64,000 bases of DNA, taken from positions 20,026,001 through 20,090,000 of the forward strand of contig NC_091994.1 of assembly GCF_044704955.1 (NCBI RefSeq), written 5' to 3'. The DNA is from Pristiophorus japonicus (taxonomy: Eukaryota). Both the position numbers and the translations under genes were made by a program. A model generated the notes under the pieces. It was not told the DNA's origin. It was given only the letters and a program-made list of their open reading frames with translations, and searched no databases. Shown in pieces: positions 1,571-28,059 of this stretch (position 1 is its first letter; each line of letters begins with the position of its first letter).

Positions 1571-2362
1571 GGGGCCGAAATTCAGGCTTCCGATAAGGCC
1601 CGTTACTACCGGAATGCGGCGTCCATGCGGTGGAATCCAATGGCCGCCGATTTCTGGTCGAATGGCCGCCGCCAGACAAATTCAGCAGGGGCGCCGGTTT
1701 CTGGCGGTCCCCACTTCCACCCCATTGCTGCCGAGCGGCCGTGAGTGCGTCATCAGTGCGAGCACCGACGGGACCCCCACCTCCCTTGAAATTGAGGCCT
1801 AAAAATCTAGTGCCCGCCGAGCGGTGCCCCCGACAGCTTTCTCTGTCGGTGCACCTTGTATTCTTTCTGTGAGCTTTGGCTGCGTGCCGGCCATTAAAGA
1901 CAAGGGCCCACTGCTGCAGCCGCCATTTTTTTTTTTGTCGGACGACTTCCATGTCCACTGGACTATTGTGCCCCCGGGTTCGGCCAGGCCGCCAACAGGC
2001 AGCCTAACACCCCCTCTTGGGTGCCAGGCCTGTGGCTCAGCCGAAACCCTCATTGGTGGCCCAGTGGGCCAAACCTCAATAATTGCCGATTCTCTCCCCT
2101 TTAAAGATACTGGGTGATGCAGACGCGCAATGACATCACCACGCTCCGCCGCTGAGTGACAGTGGCGGAGAATCCGTCCCACCTCCACTTCCGCCCCTCA
2201 CCAGCACTTACCGCCACACCTCCGCCCCCATTAGGACCGACTTCTTGGCGGCGTCAAAAAAAAGGGCAAAGCTGAATATCGATTAAAAGTCGACCTCATC
2301 CTACCCGGCCGTGAAAACACTTAAAAAATGGTAAGTGCACCAGGTTTCTGGCGGGCCTGAAT
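1571..2362. mobile_element. Non-autonomous PIF/Harbinger-like DNA element (MITE family A)
   Basis: Starts GGGGCCGAAATTCAGG. Colinear and similar along its length to 10175-10944. Right TIR partly lost. GC/CpG rich. Confidence 0.7.
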
Positions 2363-3000
2363 GTGTTTGAATGTTGAGTGAGGAGCAACTTAGGATGAAT
2401 TTTGATTCCCACGCAATCCAATAGTCTGCCAGCATTCATCATCTAGGTTCACTCATCAAGAATAGTCACTTGGGCCTGGAGGTGGTCACTCTGTAACCAA
2501 CATCCTAATCTCAGTTCAGCCTCAACGGGGTTCATTTTGACTGCCTTCGCCTGGCGTTAACAGGGTGGTAATGGCCTCAAAATATGGTTGGTAGCCTTAC
2601 CGTCCCATTAATACAGGCGACGCAGCTGGCTCCATTTTGAAAGGGGCCTACCTCCAGATATCCAAAGCCTGTTTCAGATGATAGGCCCTTTATAATATGG
2701 AGATGGCAAGGGGTTCCTATGACGTAAGTAGTATCCCGATTGCAATTTTAGGTCAGAATGGTCGGACCGATCAGGTCAACAGTTGATGGAGCCAAAGCAG
2801 TCGCCAAAGGTAAATGTTGAATTATTTTGTGGGCTTTGGAGGAGCCCACAGTGATAATCTGGGCCGTTTCTGCCTCGGGACTCGTACCTTGCCTGATCAC
2901 AGCACCCCCTTCCCCACCCCTCCTCATCTTACCTTGTTGGCGGCCGCCCACCCTGATCTTGAGGCCTCAATCCAACGACCTGCACCGTGGAACTGCAATG

Positions 3001-3566
3001 CTAACTCTGTTTCTCTCTCCACAGACGCTGCCTGACCTGCTGACTATTTCCAACGGTGGCAAAGACCTTTGTGAGGTCAAAGAACATACTCGACCAGTTC
3101 CGTTGGGCGGACCACATTGTCCGCATGCCCGACACGAAACTCCCAAAGCAAGCGACCTACTCTGAACTCCTACACAGCAAGCGAGCCCCAGGTGGGCAGA
3201 GGAAATGTTTCAAGGACACCCTCAAAGCCTCCTTGATAAAGTGCAATGTCCCCACCGACACCTGGGAGTCCCTGGCCAAAGATTGCCCTAAGTGGAGGAA
3301 GAGTATCCGGGAGGGCGCTGAGCACCTCGAGTCACGTCGCCGAGAGCATGCAGGAAATGAGCAGAGGCAGCGGAAGGAGCGTACGTCAACCCAGACTCCC
3401 CACCCACCCTTTCCTTCAACCACTGTCTGCCCCGCCTGTGACAGAGACTGTAATTCCCGTATTGGACTGTTCAGCCACCTGAGAACTCACTTTTAGAGTT
3501 TTCGAGATTTCGAGGGACTGCCTATGATGATGGATGATTTCCAACATTTTCTGTTTTTATTTCAGA
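3001..3566 (+). mobile_element. Penelope-type terminal-repeat remnant interrupted by an RTE insertion
   Basis: ctctccacagacgctgcctgacctgctgactatttccaac ... atttccaacattttctgtttttatttcaga matches the right arm of 5314-5506. Confidence 0.65.
3055..3536 (+). mobile_element. RTE-clade LINE 3' fragment
   Basis: ORF end RWADHIVRMPDTKLPKQ...CPACDRDCNSRIGLFSHLRTHF (C2H2-like finger), (ATG)n tail, 9-bp TSD ATTTCCAAC at 3046-3054 and 3537-3545. Confidence 0.85.
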
Positions 3567-4432
3567 AACCTCATGTTTCCGGCCGTTGGCAGAAGCCACA
3601 CTGATTTCCATTAGGCCCTTGCTCCTCTGGGGCCGGCGGACTTCCTGTGCCTGAAATTAACCAAGTCAAAATGGTGGGGAGGGTATTTGTGGGGGGTGGT
3701 GGCAGGATCGCGTCAAGTGAACGATGAGACTGTAATTTAATTTAAAGGCTCGGGGGCTCATGTGGAATTATAAACTGACGAGGACCAAGCGTGATCAGTT
3801 TATGGCTATCACCTGAAGTGAAATCTATTGTTCACTGTCTGGTGAAATAACTTAGTGTAATAGGCACCAAAGTCTTAGTAAACCAAAGTCAGTGATATTG
3901 CCAAACATCTGCAGTGTAGATAGGGAAAGGATTGAAAACTGAAGCTATCTCCGTTATATAACCTCTACAGAATATACTGTCACAAGCTTCACAATAGACT
4001 GTAATGAGGAATTAATTTGAGTTCTAAATTAGAATTTTAAGGGAATTAAGAGAAGTCTAAAGGGATTATATTGCAATGGGAAGCCAAAGCACAAGACTAT
4101 GACGCCATATGGCGTATTATAAAAAATATTATTGTAGCTGAGCCATACAAATCAGAAAGTCTAAGGCTCAATCCCCAATCATTGCTGAGTTAGTCAAACT
4201 CAGCCAGAGTAACAGTTGAATTGCCCTCAAAACCCTTGGGCTAGGGAATGGTGTGGTGTGGGGGCGGGGAGCGGAGGGGGGGGGGGGGAGGAATCGGCAC
4301 TAGTTCCCACTCCTGATCACTGTCCATTGATCCTTACTGCAGATGTCGGAAGAGGATAGGATCTGTCTCGGATGCAGTGTGGCCAAGGTCAGGTAAACGG
4401 TTTATGTTTATGCAGCGAAGTCGTAAACTGGA

Positions 4433-4757
4433 GAAAGACTTTCATGAGCTCAAGACGTCCCAAAGCGTTTTACAGCCAACAAAGTACTTTTGAAGTGTAG
4501 TCACTGTTTTCTAATGTAGGAAACACGGAAATGCATACAGCAAGCTCCCACTAAAAGCAATGTGATAATGGCCAGATAATTCGCTATAGTGATGTTGACT
4601 GAGGGATAAATATCCCAGGACACTAGAGATAACTCCCATGCTCTTCTTTGAATAGTGACATAGGATCTTTTATGTCCACCTGAGAGAGCAGACTTGAATC
4701 CACACCCTTCTGACTCAGAGGTGAGGCTGCTACCACAACTGACACCAACTGCTGACA
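4433..4757 (-). mobile_element. DeuSINE-type SINE (internally deleted)
   Basis: Reverse complement of the head, Deu core and tail seen at 710-1150. Confidence 0.75.
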
Positions 4758-4804
4758 CTCACTGCAATCGGTTTCATAAGTCCAAGCTATCACGCATAGT
4801 ACAG

Positions 4805-5095
4805 GATTAGTAACCTTCTGGTTGTGAGTTCAAATTCCACCTTGGCAAGTTATGAAATTGAATTCAATAAACCTTATAATTTGATCATGAGAGCTGCCAT
4901 ATTGTATTAAAGACCCAATTGTGTCATAAATGTCCTTTCAGGGAAAGTAATCTACCACTCCTACCTGGCCTGACTTAAATAACCACACTATATGATTGAC
5001 TCTTAATGCCCTCCGAAGTAGCCTTGCAGTTGTCAGGGCATTAAGGGTAGGCAATAAGGATATGGTTTTACCAGTATCACCCACATCCTGAGAAT
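4805..5095 (+). mobile_element. SINE with a CR1-clade-type tail (HE1-like)
   Basis: B-box-like gagttcaaattcc and tail gggcattaagggtaggcaataa..cacatcctgagaat; same tail at 16567-16660 (+) and 17657-17880 (-). Family name is tentative. Confidence 0.5.
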
Positions 5096-5313
5096 AAGTT
5101 TTGCAAAAATAGAATAGCCACAACTTTTGCCATTAGAATGTTGAAGAAAGCAAAGTGACTTTTCAAAGTGCAATTGGGACATGATCTACTAAAAATTTTT
5201 TTAAAAGGCTTCCTTTTGATCAAAATAGTACAGATTCGCATTGACCATGCAAATACTTCCGAATGAACCAAAAGTATTTTTAGCCATCATTAATCAGCTG
5301 CTTCTTTCTACTT

Positions 5314-5506
5314 ATAAAAACAGAAAATGCTGGAAATCTCAGTGGGTCAGGCAGCATCTTTTTTTCTTGTTCTGACGAAGGGGCATCGACCTGAAACGTT
5401 AATTCTGTTTTTCACTCCACAGATGCTGCCTGACCCGCTGAGATTTCCAGCATTTTCTGTTTTTATTTCAGATTCCAGCATCCGCAATATTTTGCTTTTA
5501 CATTGT
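5314..5506 (+). mobile_element. 193-bp fold-back Penelope-type element with a hammerhead ribozyme core and 15-bp TSD
   Basis: TSD TGCTTCTTTCTACTT at 5299-5313 and 5507-5521; 46-bp inverted arms 5314-5359 and 5421-5466 (45/46 match); CTGACGA (5372-5378) ... GAAACGTT (5393-5400) in the loop. Confidence 0.8.
5369..5403 (+). ncRNA. Minimal type I hammerhead ribozyme motif (possibly decayed)
   Basis: GUU-CUGACGA-AGG(ggcaucga)CCU-GAAA-CGUU-AAU: conserved core boxes, short stems I and II, palindromic ACGU in place of stem III. Confidence 0.6.
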
Positions 5507-5880
5507 TGCTTCTTTCTACTTGTTCAGGGTGTGTGTGTAACAGCTTAATATCTCATATCTGCCTCAGCAAGGTTCGCTGATTCATAACCGAGGCAGCATC
5601 CTATCAGGCTGTTCTTAGGAAGCCTCGGTTCCTGGAAAGCCCGGTTTCAGATTTAGCTGTGGAGGTGCTATGCTGGCTGCTGTGTCAAGTTGCTCTTGCG
5701 CAAGACCCTCTCTCTGGCGCAATGGCAACTTCTACTGGTGACTAGGTGTTAGTAACATCATAAAAATGACTTTGCAAGCAACAAAGAACTCATGAAACCT
5801 TGAAGTTATGATCCACCAGAGGAAACTTTCCACATTGTAGAGACATTCTTATCTTGCTATTGTTTAAACTATGCTAAAAG

Positions 5881-6547
5881 CATCATCGTCATAGGCAGTC
5901 TCTCGAAATCGAGGAAGACTTGCTTCCACTCTAAAAGTGAGTTCTCAGGTGACTGAACAGTCCAATACCGGAATCACAGTCTCTGTCACAGGTTTGCCAG
6001 ACAGTCGTTGAAGGAAAGGGTGGGTGGGGAGCCTGGTTTGCCGCACGCTCCTTCCGCTGCCTGTACTTGCTTTCTGCATGCTCTCGATGACGAGACTCAA
6101 GGTGCTCAGCACTCTCCCAGATGCTTTTCCTCCAATTAGGGCAGACTTTGGCCAGGGTATCTCAGGTGTCAGTGGGGATGTTGCACTTTATCAAGGAGGT
6201 TTGAGGGTGTCCTTGAAACGTTTCCTCTGCCCACCTGGGGCTCGCTTGTCGTGTAGGAGTTCCGAGTAGAGCGCTTGCTTTGGGAGTCTTGTGTCGGACA
6301 TGTGGACGATGTGGCCCGCCCAACAGAGCTGGTCGAGTGTGGTCAGTGCTTCGATGCTGTGGATGTTGGCCTGATCGAGAACACTGACATTCATGGGAAT
6401 TTGTAGGATCTTGCGGAGACAGCGTTGGTGGTATTTCTCCAGCGATTTGAGGTGTCTGCTGTATATGGCCCACATCTCTGAGCCATATAGGAGGGCGGGT
6501 CTCACTGCAGTCCTGCAGACCATAAGTTTGGTAGCAGATTTGAGGTC
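5881..6547 (-). mobile_element. RTE-clade LINE 3' fragment
   Basis: ORF LKSATKLMV..LLYGSEMW..SLEKYHQRCLRKIL..GGQRKRFKDTLK; (ATG)n-like tail at 5881. Confidence 0.85.
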
Positions 6548-6829
6548 GTGTGATGAGCAACGTGTGATTGGCATGACACTTGTTTTATTTTTCTTGTGTA
6601 AATAAGCTACAAAAGTTGCAAACTGTACTTCGTCCAGTGCCTCTTTAACACCTCTTTCTCTAATGGTAGCGGTAAATGCAACAGAGTCTATGTTGTCTGG
6701 GAGTGAGGAATGTGACAAGTTTGCAAGTGTCTGGGATGATGCAGCTGTATTCTGTTCAACCTATAACTGCTGCAGGGCAACAGGAATGTTGTCATTTGGC
6801 ATGAAACGCATGAATGACACCCACAGTGT

Positions 6830-8177
6830 GGTACTTAACCAAGACTCTGCCTTCAACAAGAGTGTCCTCGACTCCATCCCGCAGCATGCTACCTGCCACC
6901 ATCGCAGCACAAGGTAGAAAAGGCCATCTGTCAGCTCAAGAACACAAGGCATCAGATGGAATCCCCGCTGGGGCACTAAAGTATGGTGGAGAAGCACTAT
7001 TGGCATGAATGCATGACCTCATCTCTCTTATCTGGAAGGAGGAGAGTATGCTGGGAGACATCAGAGATGCCGTAATCATGACCATCTTCAAAAAAGGGGA
7101 CAAGTCCGACTGTGGCAACTACAGAGGAATCTCCCTGCTTTCAGCCACTGGGAAAGTCATTGCAAGAATCCTCCTCAACCATCTTCTCCCTGTGGCTGAA
7201 GAACTCCCTCAGAGTCACAATGCAGATTCCGTCCACTAAGGGGTACAACGGACATGATCTTCACCTCTCGACAACTACAAGAGAAATGCAGGAAACAGCA
7301 CCAACCCTTTGTACATGGCCTTCTTTGGCCTCAAAAAGGCCTTTGACACTGTCAACCGTGAGGGACTATGGAGCATCCTCCTCCGTTTCGGTAGGTCACC
7401 ATCCTCCGCCTGCTCCACGACGACATGCAAGCCATGATCCTGACCAACGGATCCACCACAGACCCAATCCATGTCCAGACCAGGATCAAGCAGGGCTGTG
7501 TCATCGCACCAACACTCTTCTCAATCTTCCTTCCAGCAATGCTTCATCTCACTCTCAACAAGCTCCCCACTGTAGTGGAACTAAACTATAGAACCAATGG
7601 GAACCTGTTCAACCTTCGTCGCCTCCAGGCTAGATCCAAGACCGTCCCATCTGTCATCGAACTACAGTACGCGGACGACTCTTGCGTCAGCGCACATTCT
7701 GAGGCCGAACTCCAAGCCATCGTCAGCACCTTCACCGAGGCGTACGAAAGCATGGGCCTTACACTAAAGATCCGTAAGACAAAAGTCCTCCACCAACGTG
7801 CCCAGCCACACAGCACTGCACCTCCCCCTCCCCCAGTCAGCAAAATCCATGGCATGGCTGTGGACAACGTGGACCATTTTCCATACCTCGGAAGTCTACT
7901 ATCAGCAAGGGCAGACATCGATGACGAGGTCCAACACCACCTCCAGTTTGCCAGCGCAGCCTTCGGTCGTCTGCTTATGGTCTACAGGGCAGTAGTGATA
8001 CCCACCCTCCTATGTGGCTCAGAGATGTGGACTGTGCACAATAGACACCTCAAAGCGCTGGAGAAGTACCACCGGCACTGCCTCCGCAAGATCCTGCCAA
8101 TCCACTGGGAGGATAGACACACCAACGTGGAAGCAAGTCATCCTCGTTTCGAGGGACTGCCTATGATGATGATGATG
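6830..8177 (+). mobile_element. RTE-clade LINE, decayed RT region and tail
   Basis: RT motifs TIFKKGDKSDCGNYRGISLLS, KQGCVIAPTLF, ELQYADD, FPYLGS; frameshifts and deletions; (ATG)n tail. Confidence 0.9.
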
Positions 8178-9189
8178 ACTGACTCATCCAGACCGGGAGA
8201 GTCCCAGGTTCGATCTTAGCCTGGCTGTTGGCGAGGCCAGTACAGTTGGGTTTGGTTTTAGTGATAGGAAGAAAATTAGGCAAGGGTTCCTGCTCTTGAT
8301 CATTATCCACTGATCCAGATGGCAAGTTTGTGTATAAGGGCCCGATTGTGAGGTTTGATCTCCACGAACAAATAGTAATCTAGCACTAATGGTCTAGTTC
8401 ACAAGCGGAGACTGGTCACTTCGACGCGTTATCAGAGGGTTATCATTACCATTCCCTAACACAAGCTATTGCCTCTATGAGGGGAGAAAAGGGGGAAAAA
8501 TTTTCACTTAACTCATGTATGATTGATCATAATAACAGTGATCAATGATAAAATCTTAGTAACAGTGACTCTCCTAACAAATAATGTCTGATACTATGTT
8601 TCGTGTTGTGTTTTCTCACCATTTTGCTTCCCTCCCCTCCTCCCCAGGCATTAACCTTTTCCTCCAATAGGGTCCTATGAGCATTAGTCACCCTTCGGTA
8701 CCTCCTTGGCCAAGTGATCGTTATCCATTTCAAAGCCTTCAGAATGTATGTTGTCAGGTTATTCAACTATGAGGATACCTGACATCCATGTATACAGCTT
8801 TCTAACAAGGATCGATGGAGTGGCAATGGTGGGTGATGCCTTTTCCCCCTTTCCCTAATCAAGGCCACAACAGACAATGTTAGTGCCCCTACCACCATGT
8901 TGCCCGAGGTCACCTAACTCAGCACAGACTGGAAATGTGACCAAGGGCATTTCTGGTCAGTGACTCATTGTCTAAATCTGGCAAGCCATCGAGGCAGTTC
9001 TCCTTTATTACTAAGTACAAGAATCCTTTCCTGTTGGAAAAAAAGCTGCCCAGGTCATCACACTGGCTCACTTTCCAACTGATCTTGTTAGGAGGAGCAG
9101 CATTTCTTTTGGAGCTTTAACTGTGCCATTATATCAAACTTTCATTGGCAAGAGCATGCACGCTGTAAAGCTGTAAATTAGGTCTGTAA

Positions 9190-19177: not shown

Positions 19178-21965
19178 GGGCTAGACTTTCCACTAGGTGG
19201 CTAACGCCCCAAAAAATGGGCCATGTTCCAGCGATGTGGGACGTCTCACCCGTGCTAATCGCCGGCACGAGGCCCATTTTTTTTTTTGCGATTTTCCACT
19301 CGACCTTACCCCGGCGATGTCAAATGAGCGAGCTGATTTTTCAGCGATCTCACGATTGCCCAAAGTAAGCGGAAGTCAAACGGAAGTCATAGAAAAAAAA
19401 AGCTTCCCTAGCAACGCTATTGTGCATATGTGTGGGATTTTTCTTTTGTTGATTTTTTTTGCCGTGTTTGGAGAGGTCATAGGTCATCGGACATGCTCAG
19501 AGGCACAGGGAGGGTCAGAGAGCGCAGGAGAAAGAGAAGGAGAGAGGACTGTTCATTTGCTCTGTGAAATATTTGACTTATCTAGAATCTAGTATCTAGC
19601 ATCTAGTATATAGTATATAGTATCTTAAAGTATCTTAAAGCAATGTCGATGCAGCTAGAATAGGAAAGGGAGAGTGCAAGGAGAAGGGCCAAAGCCTTTA
19701 GCGAGGAGGCCAACGAGGCCCTTGTAAATGTAGTGATTAATAGGTGGGAGGACTTGACACGGAGTGGACATGGGAAACCTCCAACCTGAACATATCACAG
19801 ACGATGGGTGGAGATTGCCGATGTTGTGACATCTGCATCTAATGAGGTGCGGACTGCTGACCAGTGCCACAAGAGATGGAACAACCTGCTGGCAGCAGCC
19901 AGAGTAAGTTGCATTTTATATTCTATATTTAAAACATATTTAAAAGTCATATTTAAAATCATACATATGTATTATTTACTTGATGTTTATAAATTGGAAT
20001 TAGAATCTTCAAAGTCATTTATTTATAATATAAAATAATTAAATTATAAATAAATGTATTCACCCTAACACTAAGTTGAATCTTATAGTATTAAACATTA
20101 GTCATATGCCCTGCAATGTTAAGTAACAATTGAACATTTAAATCTGTCAGTCTTAAATGTTTATTGTCAAGTCCAGTAGCTTATGCCGTGCAATGTTATC
20201 TTATCATTTACAGAAAAAGATAACTATCAACCGTGCGGAGCAAAAGAGGGCAGGTGGCAGCTCCGCAATATCCACGTGCTAACACAATACGAGGAGCTTG
20301 CGGTGGCGTTGGTGGGGCCTGAAAGCCGCTCAGTCATGACCTGTGGTGTGGCCGAGCCCACCCTTCAGTCTCGTGAGTAATGGGAACTGTGCAATGTGTC
20401 AAACATTACTAAATAGATACTAAACCTATCGTAATTACGCATGTAATGTTATGCAATTATAATTCAATAATTTTGATGTACTCTTGATCTACAAATGAGG
20501 TCATGTTACTCCTGGTGAACCCTTGTGCATATGGGGTTTTGAAAAGTATTGCAATGTTTTGGGTTATTGAAATATTGATATTGATATTGAAATATTGATA
20601 TATATTGATATGTATTGTTATAAATTGTTTAGAAATTTCATTCATCTTTCTAAGGTCAAGTGTCCATTGAGCCAGGTGATTTAGAGGAGACATCTGCAAA
20701 TATCGACCCCTCCAACAGTTCACAGGAGGAAGAGACGGAGGAGGAGAATGTTAACACTCAATCCATAACTCAATTTGAGCCGGAGCAAGAGGAGGAGGAG
20801 GATGAGATTGTTTTTGTGGGGGTAAACAACCTGCAGCTATCTCAATTGAGATGGAAGAGGCACCGGGACCATGCGGTGTGCAGGTGGCGACGCCAAGGCG
20901 CATAATTTTTCAAACACCGACCCCACGGAGGTCTGGTCAGCGGGGTGAGCAATCACCTATCATGGACAGCCAGACTGAGAGCTTATTATCTCTGTGCAGG
21001 GAGATGGTTGCGATCGGTTGCGACCTTATCCAAGGTTTCGCGGGATTCTCTGCCAACTGGAGCCAGTTCTCCACGAACTGGAGCCAGTTTCCAGCAACCT
21101 GGAGCGAGTTCTGCATGAACTTCTTCAACTGGTTTTCCGAGCAAGCACAGACTGCAAGGGAGGCGTTGGAGGCCATTCGGCAGCAGACAGGGTTCAACCA
21201 ATGCCCTACGTCATGTGTTGCTGGCCGGACACGGCGCTGCACCCCAAGGTGTCGTGTCTGCTCGTAGCGAGACCCTGAGCACGCAAGTGAGTACGGAGGA
21301 CACAATTCCTCCTGACTCCAAAGTGGAGCTTCAGGCTTCCGCTTCCGCTCTATCACCTCCACCACGGCAGGAAGTCTTGCCGTCCCACTCTGCACAACAT
21401 CTTGGTGTTGGTCTGCGTAGACCAAAACGGGTGGATGGGATACGAACACGGGGTGGGACTGGACCTGGATGGAAACGTGGCCGCAGGTAGGGAGGGGAGA
21501 GTGCTTCCAAAAGTTTATTCGTTCAGTGTTCACTTGTTCAATTGATCTTGTTTTGTTAATTGTTAATTGTTAAGATTTTGCGTATTTGAGGGAAGGGTGG
21601 CTTGGTGCGGGGATGGGGGGCTGGAGGGATAGTTTATTACAGTTTTTTAAAATATTTAAATATTTGTGTGCGTCTTCTCTCTTAGTTACATTAGTTATCA
21701 TCTGTACAGTTGTTAATCCATATTTGTTTATTCTTTTATTATACAAGTACTTTACTTACACTAAACTTTATATTTAAAATAAGCATAAATTCTGATGATA
21801 GGCCAGTGCAGACAAGACAACAAGGAAACTCCACGCAATTGAAATTTTTGATTAACCCTAACTGTAAATCAACATCTGAATGTCCACATTTAGCGAGCGG
21901 AACCCCTTTCTGTTACGAAAGACCTCCGCTTTCTTTAAGGGTGCTTTGAGAGCAATGTGCGTACC
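19178..21965 (+). mobile_element. PIF/Harbinger transposon, left part (right TIR not found)
   Basis: Left end GGGCTAGACTTTCCACT resembles the GGGC-type TIRs in the window; carries a spliced Myb/SANT-like gene. Confidence 0.65.
19643..21490 (+). pseudogene. Harbinger Myb/SANT-like (trihelix, NAIF1-type) DNA-binding protein pseudogene, 3 exons (19643-19903, 20214-20372, 20655-21490)
   Basis: RRRAKAFSEEANEALVNVVINRWEDL...RWVEIADVVTSASNEVRTADQCHKRWNNL, then KKITINRAEQKRAGG..LTQYEE, then an acidic tract; GT-AG introns; in-frame stops and frameshifts. Confidence 0.75.
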
Positions 21966-24266: not shown

Positions 24267-24428
24267 AATACGCTGACTGTGGGCTTACTAAAGTTTTATA
24301 CTGATTCTCCATTACATTTGAACTTTTGTATTCTACAACTCTTGCAATAAAGTCCAGTATTCTATTAGCTTCTTCATGGCCTTATCCAGTTGAGGTGCTA
24401 CTTTTAAAAGTCTCGTGAACCTGAATGC

Positions 24429-25738
24429 GACAGAGGTTGCGACGGTCTTGGATCCGGCCTGGAGATGACGAAGGTTGAACAGATTCCCACTGGTTCTGTA
24501 GTTTAGTTCCACTCCAGCAGGGAGCTTGTTGAGTGTGAGGTGGATCATTGCAGTGAGGAAAATAGAGAAGAGGGTTAGCACGATGACGCAGCCCTGCTTG
24601 ACACCGGTGCGGACGTGGATTGGGTCTGTGATGGATCCGTTGGTCAGGATCACAGCTTCCATGTCGTTGTGGAGCAGGCGGAGGATGGCGACAAACTTTT
24701 GGGGGCAGTCAAAACGGAGGAGGACGCTCCAGATTCCCTCGCGGTTGACAGTGTCAAAGGCCATTGTAAGGTCAAAGGCTGGTGCTGTTCCCTGCATTTT
24801 TCTTGCAGTTGTCGCGCCGTAAAGATCATGTCCATTGTACCCCGTAATGGACGAAATCCCACTGTGACTCCAGGAGGAGCTCCTCAGCCGCAGGAAGAAG
24901 ACGGTTGAGGAGGATTCTAGCGATTACTTTCCCAGTGGCTGATAACAGGGAGGTTCCTCTGTAGTTGCTGCAGTCGGACTTGTCCCCTTTTTTAAAGATG
25001 GTCATGATTACTGCATCTGTGAGATCTCTCGGCATGCTCTCCTCCTTCCTGATGAGAGAGATGAGGGCATGCATTCGTGCCTATAGTGCCTCTCCGCCAT
25101 ACTTTAGTGCGTCAGTGGGGATTCCATCCGCTCCCATTGCCTTGTTGTTCTCCAGCGGAAATCGCTGGAGAAATACCACCAACGATGTCTCTGCAAGATC
25201 CAGCAAATCCCCTGGGAGGACAGACGCACCAACATTAGCGTCCTCGATCAGGCCAACATCCCCAGCATCGAAGCACTGACCACACTTGACCAGCTCCATT
25301 GGGCAGGCCACATTGTTCACATGCCTGACACAAGACTCCCAAAGCAAGCGCTCTACTCGGAACTCCTACACGGCAAGCGAGCCCCAGGTGGGCAGAGGAA
25401 ACATTTCAAGGACACCCTCAAAGCCTTCTTGATAAAATACAACATCCCCACCGACACCTGGGAGTCCCTCGCCAAAGTCTGCCCTAAGTGGAGGAAGAGC
25501 ATCCGGGAGGGAGCTGAGCACCTCGAGTCTCGTCACCAGGAGCATACAGAAATCAAGCGCAGGCAGCGGAAGGAGCGCGCAGCAAACCAGACTCCCCCAC
25601 CCACCCTTTCCTTCAACGACTGTCTGTCCCACCTGTGACAAAGACTGTAATTCCCGCATTGGACTGTTCAGTCACCTAAGAACTCACTTTTAGAGTGGAA
25701 GCAAGACTTCCTCGATTTCGAGGGACTGCCTTTGACGA
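24429..25738. mobile_element. RTE-clade LINE with a 5' inversion (minus part 24429-25150, plus part ~25160-25738)
   Basis: RT segment on the minus strand and 3' segment plus tail on the plus strand, all inside one 13-bp TSD (11/13 match). Confidence 0.85.
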
Positions 25739-28059
25739 TGAACCTAAACGCCCAAATCCCTCTGGTCTTCCACTTCACTCAGCTTTTTCCCATTTATAGT
25801 ATAATTACTACAGTCTTTATCAAAATGCAACACCTCAAATAAACTGTCCTTGAATTCCATCTTTTACCCATTCCACCATCTTAACAATATCCCCCTTCCA
25901 GCTTTCTTTGGTCCTTAAAATTATTTGCTGTGCCTCCTATTTTAGTATCACTGCAAATTTGGACATCAGCCTCACTATCCCTATATCCAAATCATTAATG
26001 ACCAGAAATAGTCCCAGAACGGAGCCCTGTGGGACACCTCTATCTACTTCCAACCACATTGAGAAACTGACCGTCACTCCTCCTCTCTGTCTGTTCCCTC
26101 TAACTTATTTTTAATGCTCCACTTTTTTATGCTCCATAGTTTTTAATCTTTTCCAATCATCTCCTGTGTGGCTCCTTGTCAAAGGTGTTCAGAAAGTCCA
26201 TATACACCACATCCACTGCATTTCCCTGAGTGAATTCCGGTGCATTGGGCTGGGTGACGAGTGTGAAATGCACTCATTAGGTTTCCAGTCTAGGTACTTT
26301 AACTCCCAGACCTCACTTAAACTCTGTCAGTCCACTTCCCATCCGGGAGGGAATAGGGTGCAGGTCGGCTGCCAGTCGGGGACATTTTGGGCAGCCAAAG
26401 GCAATCCACCAGCTTCCAGATTAAGGAGCACTCCTCCTCCTGGCCCCTACCAGGCAAGAGTGATTACACTTCAAAAGTACTTCATTGGCTGTGAAGGAGG
26501 TGAAAAGAAATGTATAAACACAAACACACCACTGATTACAGACATTACACATTAACAAAGATATAGCAACATAGGCAGCATCAATTTCAATCTTATCTTA
26601 TTAAACTGATACGTTTTTAATCATTACTTTCCAAGATTGGGATTGTAAAACCAATCATGACCCATAAGTAATCTGGGATCTGGAGCATGGTTGTAATAGT
26701 TGACCACTAACATGTCTTGTATATTTTTAAAAGTCACTTACTAGGCAAATTAAGATTGTAGTAGTTACTTAGAAACTGAGAGGCCAGTTGTAACTGCTTG
26801 TAATGTTTTGGCTCCAGTACAATGACTGGAGTTCCAGTTGCTTAAGATTGTTTTGCAGTGCTAACAAAGTATAGCAATTGGTGTGAGGCAGATAGATGCC
26901 TGCGTGATGCAAAGGGGACAAAATGCCAATGGGTCCACTTTGCTGGTGGAAGTGAGGCGGAGCGCAATGTATGGCCACCATTGAAGGATTCTAACCCCAT
27001 CCCAAATTGCAGGAATGGGATCATTCGCATATCTAGGATAGGTAGCCAGTGCTTGTAAGGACGTATCAGAGATGTCCACGCACCACTATCCCTGCTAGAT
27101 GCAGCAGCACCCAGCCTGCCCCAAGGCTCTTCTGCTACTAGATTGTGTTCCCAGCCCCAAAGAGAAACCATCACTGAAAGATCTTCGGTTCCAATGATAG
27201 CCATAAATCTAGCAGCATGAGGTGATCAATTCCCTTACTTCTAGCAAGGCCTGGAGCATGAATCTGAAGGGTTTCAAGGATTTAAAGAGTAGAATTCCCA
27301 GGAGAGCATGAGATCACCCCAGACACTTCCCCCATTGATGTGGAGAGGTCAGATGGAACATCTGCCCAGGGTTCCCCTATTGGTAAATGATTGGACCAAA
27401 CTCCAGACGCAATTTGGTTTGCCCCATTTTCCGTTAAGGTGTAGGTGTGTGCCTGGTTAAGTCTGAGAGGTGCAATTGTTCTGCGTTCTTGAGATCAATG
27501 GTTTGGTCAGTTAAAGGTCAGCCTGGCATTCTTTTGTTAAGTGTTGGAAGATCACAACATCAAACAGAGATAAATCAAAGCTTAATTATCAGGGCATTTT
27601 GTGAAGTGGAAGGTGCTCCTCACTTCAGGTGCAGTCAGCCTTGCCTCCAAGATTGTTTTGCATTTGTTACACAAGTGTGTGAGATCAAGGTACAATAAGT
27701 AATGATCACTGCACTTTGGGGGTTATAAAGTAAAGCACCTAGATAATAGACATTAGTTTGTAAATGCATCATCCAGTTTGAAACTGAGCAGGGAGCTCCC
27801 AGATTTGTGCTCAGTTATCCATTCGCAGCCAATATAGGGCATAGAATATGTAACCCACATTCTCATTTCCATTTGCCGTCCAATGACTCTTATTGGAAAG
27901 TAAGTATGTATATCAGATGAAGAGACTGAGCTCTGATGCAAAACATGATAATACAGTACCAGCCTCCCCAACACTATCTCGGCTCATAATGAAAAAAACT
28001 ATTTGGATGGCCACGAGGGAGTCAATATCTTCAGGCAGAGGAGAAAAAAAAAAGAGAAT

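Follow-up and report, generated by a model that had tools for sequence, protein, structure and literature searches.

Endonuclease-bearing (EN+) Penelope-like elements (PLEs) typically show an inverted, 5′-truncated copy of the element together with a one-sided tail of 30–40 bp (PMC8557442; PMC8969392), and in a rotifer the inverted pLTR units are flanked by target site duplications (TSDs) of 8–10 bp (PMC3846280). The tail has been ascribed to resolution of an intermediate by the endonuclease (PMC8557442), and self-priming was proposed for the head-to-head structures (PMC3846280). For the Poseidon element PAc from Anolis carolinensis, the protein, a predicted dimer, nicks and extends both strands of the target, reverse transcription starts from a pair of neighbouring internal sites by which the tail is delimited, and insertion in vitro is independent of ribozyme cleavage (PMC11167929). 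PLEs of metazoans also carry minimal hammerhead ribozymes (min-HHRs), described in PMC4209133 as mostly single motifs from truncated copies; in that work, cleavage was absent with single motifs and weak with dimers. Lastly, the animal non-LTR retrozymes are portrayed as short, non-coding, hammerhead-bearing and PLE-related, and consist of tandem repeats with a ribozyme per unit, which give rise to circular RNAs (PMC7229834; bioRxiv 10.64898/2026.07.22.740005).

The locus described here, at 5299..5521, lies in a window of 64,000 nucleotides of Pristiophorus japonicus NC_091994.1 (the window being the whole stretch of DNA that was analysed, with positions counted from its first letter), and has the following parts:

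5299–5313, no strand: left copy of a 15-bp direct repeat (putative TSD); contig depth is single-copy up to here
5314–5359, minus strand: inverted, 5′-truncated 46-bp copy of the 3′ part of the element, whose outer end corresponds to position 5466, the tail-less end of the family
5360–5368, no strand: nine T-rich bp that join both copies, either filler or diverged family sequence
5369–5466, plus strand: direct, 5′-truncated copy of the 3′ part of the element, reaching the tail-less end (from contig depth)
5467–5506, plus strand: one-sided tail of 33–40 bp, family-like to approximately 5499 and followed by 7 bp of uncertain origin
5507–5521, no strand: right-hand member of the pair of 15-bp direct repeats

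We consider that this is very probably an EN+ PLE insertion, now dead and severely truncated; since neither an autonomous parent nor an empty site was found, this putative membership is drawn from anatomy only. As far as PMC8557442 and PMC3846280 describe the EN+ units of Penelope/Poseidon, Neptune as well as Nematis, this locus has in common with them a head-to-head inverted truncated copy beside the 5′ end, a one-sided tail in the range of 30–40 bp, a putative TSD and a hammerhead, here a minimal type I motif, near the 3′ end, with variable 5′ truncation and partial tandems among the copies of the family. Conversely, it has neither an ORF nor a second direct pLTR, and its putative TSD is of 15 bp, compared to 8–10 bp in the rotifer examples of PMC3846280. 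An extremely truncated Penelope insertion, which was one of the two options given by the earlier sequence-only reading of this DNA, is supported by the anatomy, by two family 3′ ends and by varied junctions, whereas its description of the element as complete is not.

The direct repeat had been described as perfect, and it is exact and brackets 193 bp; no other pair of exact repeats of at least 15 bp spaced by 50–400 bp occurs in the 64-kb window, and the chance expectation for a 15-bp repeat is around 1e-6 over 400 offsets. Likewise, the arms (5314–5359 and 5421–5466) are, as claimed, of 46 nt each and differ at one site; they are 98% complementary and separated by a loop of 61 nt, and the sole mismatch, T5343 versus G5437, is a U.G wobble in the plus-strand RNA that lies at a CpG, a position from which it is likely due to deamination after insertion. 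The strong fold of the 193 bp (z = −13.0; 0 of 200 shuffles as good) comes entirely from the arms; by itself, the loop does not fold better than shuffles (z = +1.3). Matches to Rfam miRNA models were rejected as fold artefacts, being driven by the hairpin and far under gathering scores. A 44-codon frame is open from 5375 to 5506, which by itself is no evidence of coding, and it was rejected as such. In protein searches with these 44 residues we did not find a parent with RT and GIY-YIG domains; the sole phmmer match (P0003; E 3.2e-4, 36% identity), a tandem-repeat protein without an RT domain, was attributed to chance. Among the 24 of 52 ORFs from the window that were scanned there were two RVT_1 domains, both from another repeat, and no GIY-YIG domain. 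An abundant LINE-like family with RVT_1 frames occupies 24333–25741 and 5877–8219, head to head with its own 3′ segments, and the arrangement of 24429–25128 (minus strand) beside 25159–25741 (plus strand) looks like a 5′ inversion of the twin-priming type; a literature search, at the level of titles, for Penelope inverted copies with twin priming and a TSD returned nothing on topic.

Alignment of contigs from four of the eight listed public runs to 5170–5650, at 80% likeness, revealed 31,161 matching contigs in X1, 34,629 in X3, 2,419 in X5 and 313 in X8; runs X1 and X3 derive from one sample, X5 from another sample of the same organism, and X8 from a second organism. Summed depth in X1 was mostly 3.1–3.6 in the flanks and from 3.5e5 to 2.0e6 across 5369–5466, although it does not equal copy number, as short contigs that overlap enter the sum repeatedly, and its gradient is partly an artefact of the mismatches in the copy at 5299..5521. 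The fold-back copy is therefore a member of a very abundant family sitting on unique flanks. The outer junctions were read through by X1 contigs covering 5170–5336 and 5474–5650 without differences, and with one difference in X3; these junctions are real because contigs from the flanks enter the element from both sides, with X1 being possibly the sample behind the window assembly. For the inner junction (5359–5369), there was no spanning contig among the 32 listed of 69,452. An empty site was not found among the joints listed, with the X5 and X8 contigs stopping short of the flanks, and a 21-base conserved pattern of the family had no matches in contigs from metagenomes, viruses and prokaryote genomes.

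The family shows two common 3′ ends, approximately 32 nt apart. Among the 24 listed of 765 loose ends, those whose 3′ side has mixed letters as in the flanks lie behind 5467 and 5468, in 307 and 182 X1 contigs (inner end), and behind 5499, in 908 contigs from X1, 953 from X3, 66 from X5 and 9 from X8 (outer end). Likeness to the family stops at around 5499, and 5500–5506 match the loose-end majority poorly. It is at the inner end that the inverted arm starts; the direct copy extends to the outer one and is the only one with a tail. The window contains another family copy, which is more diverged:

2990–3052, plus strand: 5′ part, matching 5388–5449 with 82.5% identity
3536–3566, plus strand: 3′ part, matching 5442–5472

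This copy starts at the equivalent of 5388 and ends at that of 5472. Neither an inverted arm nor a TSD exceeding 6 bp was found for it, and an insert of approximately 480 bp, which came later and has a 9-bp duplication, divides it in two. The insert finishes at its 3′ end in GAT repeats, matches a C2H2 zinc finger weakly, and is likely the 3′ end of a LINE.

The loop of the fold-back contains the CUGACGA, GAAA and CGUU boxes that had been reported from it, and their layout is that of the minimal type I hammerheads in PMC4209133:

5369–5403, plus strand: minimal type I hammerhead motif
5369–5371/5401–5403, plus strand: stem I
5372–5378, plus strand: core CUGACGA
5379, then 5380–5384/5388–5392, plus strand: unpaired A5379, followed by stem II
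5393–5396, plus strand: GAAA box
5397–5400, plus strand: CGUU, with the predicted cut after GUU at 5400
5396–5399, plus strand: palindromic ACGU in place of stem III

Since the palindrome has no loop, it could pair solely with a second copy, and formation of stem III by ACGU would also require a second copy in intact members of the family. With the metazoan min-HHRs, as PMC4209133 presents them, the motif shares the CUGANGA and GAAA boxes, the extra base after A9 and before stem II, the palindrome at 15.2–16.2, the lack of loop III and a short helix I; stem II, conversely, is of 5 bp in the family, and broken in the fold-back copy, compared to 7–8 bp in the Schistosoma motifs from that source. 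The word shark and three genus names had no match in two of its supplementary files, and in open literature we found nothing on shark Penelope hammerheads; the family may already be named in Repbase, Dfam or subscription papers. A relaxed, core-only descriptor matched the whole window twice in the plus strand, one match being this motif, and never in the minus strand; the other, at 21792, is a loose match to the core and is probably due to chance. Comparison with the Rfam hammerhead models, which had been suggested as a check, produced no match at E values up to 10, either with 801 bp or with the loop alone, as might be expected of a motif that lacks helix III.

The majority sequence of X1 contigs differs from the fold-back copy at positions 5383 (97% of the depth), 5403 (93%), 5411 (81%) and 5414 (95%). 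With the majority letter at 5383, stem II becomes closed and comprises 5 bp; with that at 5403, a G.U pair in stem I becomes G-C. Within the 193 nt, the predicted pairing of stem II was 0.06–0.08 for this copy and 0.75–0.89 with the majority letter at 5383, and the hammerhead stems folded with +1.6 kcal/mol compared to −5.5 kcal/mol with the majority letters, while pairing of stem I was weak, at most 0.3, with either set of letters. From these folding predictions, it is plausible that the family carries a dimer-type hammerhead motif, whose presence in the family agrees with the stem II-closing letter in 97% of the depth, whereas the ribozyme of the copy at 5299..5521 is predicted to be dead, in line with the earlier suspicion that its weak stem II might leave it inactive. 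The four listed differences are all in the loop (5369–5420) and none is in the arms (5421–5466), which may reflect homogenisation of the arms, a variant source copy, or the handling of contigs that fit in two places.

The two 3′ ends provide the basis for a probable mechanism of insertion. The RT-endonuclease would introduce a nick into each strand of the target, with 15 bp between them; the 3′ end of the top strand would then prime a cDNA at the inner start site (5466, with no tail) and that of the bottom strand another one at the outer start site (approximately 5499–5506, with tail). The cDNAs would halt after 46 and approximately 140 nt, respectively, and join head to head across the nine T-rich bases, and fill-in would produce the 15-bp duplication. 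Under this scheme, the hairpin would have arisen as a side effect of integration and not as a designed RNA, and the hammerhead would have been carried along because it lies 66–100 nt from the start sites. Starting at a 3′ end of the duplicated target, both pieces indeed run antisense with respect to the strand of the hammerhead, one from each of the family ends. To the extent that PMC11167929 describes PAc, both elements have a minimal hammerhead and, downstream of it, two adjacent, tail-bounding 3′ ends, an arrangement in keeping with extension of the two nicked strands; the distance from cut to end is of 66 and approximately 100 nt here, where PAc has approximately 85–92 nt up to its main start site (from +26 and +111–118). 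Unlike with PAc, the target is pyrimidine-rich and shows no ATT motif at the putative nicks; the likeness is one of layout. A shared cut position at +26 was also considered and dropped, since PMC11167929 places the start codon at stem II and not within the core.

We infer from this layout that two-strand priming was the source of the inverted copy, whereas PMC3846280, in its account of PLE structures, proposes self-priming. It is possible, if clearly less probable, that within the same class of element a single cDNA folded back and copied itself, or was self-primed on an antisense template, and that the resulting hairpin was cleaved by the endonuclease where the tail begins, a route that joins the published self-priming (PMC3846280) and tail resolution (PMC8557442). 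Both arms display the same indel subtype near 5443, different from that of the second copy, and this fits a single template; nevertheless, one template subfamily would account equally for the common subtype. The junction, moreover, contains no palindrome, and 5360–5368 does not match 5412–5420 as priming would need. This lack of a palindrome or of fold-back microhomology favors two-strand priming, which we consider the probable route with respect to self-priming or fold-back.

A different proposal concerns the limits of the element, namely that the direct unit of approximately 135 bp, from ribozyme to tail, is a non-autonomous SINE- or retrozyme-like element mobilised by PLEs, with its 5′ end at the ribozyme and the inverted arm as a one-off. 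We consider it unlikely, even though 390 (X1) and 412 (X3) long contigs reach 5369 and cease there to resemble the fold-back copy. Upstream of this position their letters are mixed, with an agreement (0.39–0.47 in X1, X3 and X5) near the background (0.36–0.43 for ends of the flank type), so that many copies seem to stop immediately upstream of the ribozyme; this apparent stop would be a preferred 5′ end, which is unexpected under random truncation. Additionally, bioRxiv 10.64898/2026.07.22.740005 argues that animal retrozymes derive from the pLTRs of PLEs and that monomers occur. However, the loose-end majorities from X1, X3 and X5 are closely similar along some 20 letters upstream of 5369, indicating that some copies continue, and direct pieces begin at many other places, from 5384 to 5450, including 5388 for the second copy. 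A cDNA from self-cleaved RNA would also end at 5401 and not upstream of the ribozyme. Additionally, there were no tandem arrays in 2000–9000 and a single motif at the locus; the locus, although short, non-coding, hammerhead-bearing and probably PLE-related like the retrozymes, comprises just one inverted unit, whose only minimal motif is damaged, unlike their tandem repeats. The loose-end majority finishes with a pyrimidine run plus AG before 5369, which resembles the reported end of an intron at helix I in Penelope from D. virilis.

The other option of the sequence-only reading, a self-contained family of mini-elements in which the whole 193-bp fold-back is the unit and its hairpin RNA displays an active ribozyme, now appears very improbable in spite of the clean TSD, the near-perfect arms and the strong fold. 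The check proposed for it was whether copies share the same ends and internal junction: the outer ends are indeed shared, but the junctions vary. We found at least 18 other arm-to-body joints with differing fillers, all at places unlike that of the copy at 5299..5521 (13 among the best 15 of 65 joints in one search, and 5 among the best 12 of 45 in another), a soft count given that the sides were of 21–45 letters at a likeness of 80 and that six of the joints from the first search break at 5337, the mirror of an indel-variable site. For the junction of the copy at 5299..5521 itself, sharing was resolved to 17-bp bins. Each of the first 13 joints occurred in at most five contigs per run, and the other 2 of the 15 switch strand; the second search also yielded two tail-to-arm joins and two go-back joins (partial tandems). 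These varied junctions argue against a fixed fold-back family, as do the other ends and missing inverted arm of the second copy. Furthermore, the inner junction was spanned by none of the listed contigs, and the full fold lacks the hammerhead stems, with pairing of at most 0.02 for stem I even with the majority letters and 0.07 for stem II in this copy. Finally, an assembly artefact from a chimeric or fold-back read is hardly conceivable: no listed contig covers the inner junction or the whole stretch, but both outer junctions are in short contigs (0 differences in X1, 1 in X3), and neither the exact TSD nor the CpG-type arm mismatch would be expected from an artefact.

The putative truncated PLE copy also includes a candidate 3′ splice site, deduced from its sequence:

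5399–5422, plus strand: branch-point-like yUnAy (5399–5403), pyrimidine tract and CAG acceptor (5420–5422), then ATG at 5423

The motif yUnAy is the branch-point consensus, and here it overlaps the predicted cut site of the hammerhead (5400|5401). The frame from ATG 5423 (window 5423–5500) is identical in 25 of 26 positions to the last 26 residues of a protein named in UniRef as P. japonicus glutamate dehydrogenase 1 isoform X2 (residues 488–513 of P0002), which come after a normal dehydrogenase body. Because this match begins right after CAG 5420–5422, it is likely that the gene model contains a splice into a copy of the family at this point, suggesting, from one gene model, that a family copy may be used as an alternative last exon of isoform X2; by this match, the family is also located to sharks. 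Another CAG acceptor, again rich in pyrimidines, ends at 5471, beside the tail-less end. Literature on Penelope exonization and splice acceptors, at the level of titles, yielded nothing on an overlap between a cut site and a branch point.

As a long shot, self-cleavage and splicing could compete on the same RNA, with the cut site falling within the branch-point motif that belongs to a strong 3′ splice site located 21 nt downstream. Intronic copies in the sense orientation would then be Alu-like sources of last exons, an intact, dimer-dependent ribozyme would switch the exon off, and the ribozyme-to-tail unit of approximately 135 bp might move non-autonomously.

The fold-back is a tidy example of a published pattern of insertion and, as such, matters little. 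Conversely, the family, with its tens of thousands of contig matches, could be a natural data set for choosing between the two routes proposed for the Penelope cycle, two-strand priming or fold-back self-priming. Were the overlap with the splice site functional, it would tie a retroelement ribozyme to the choice of host exons in cartilaginous fishes.
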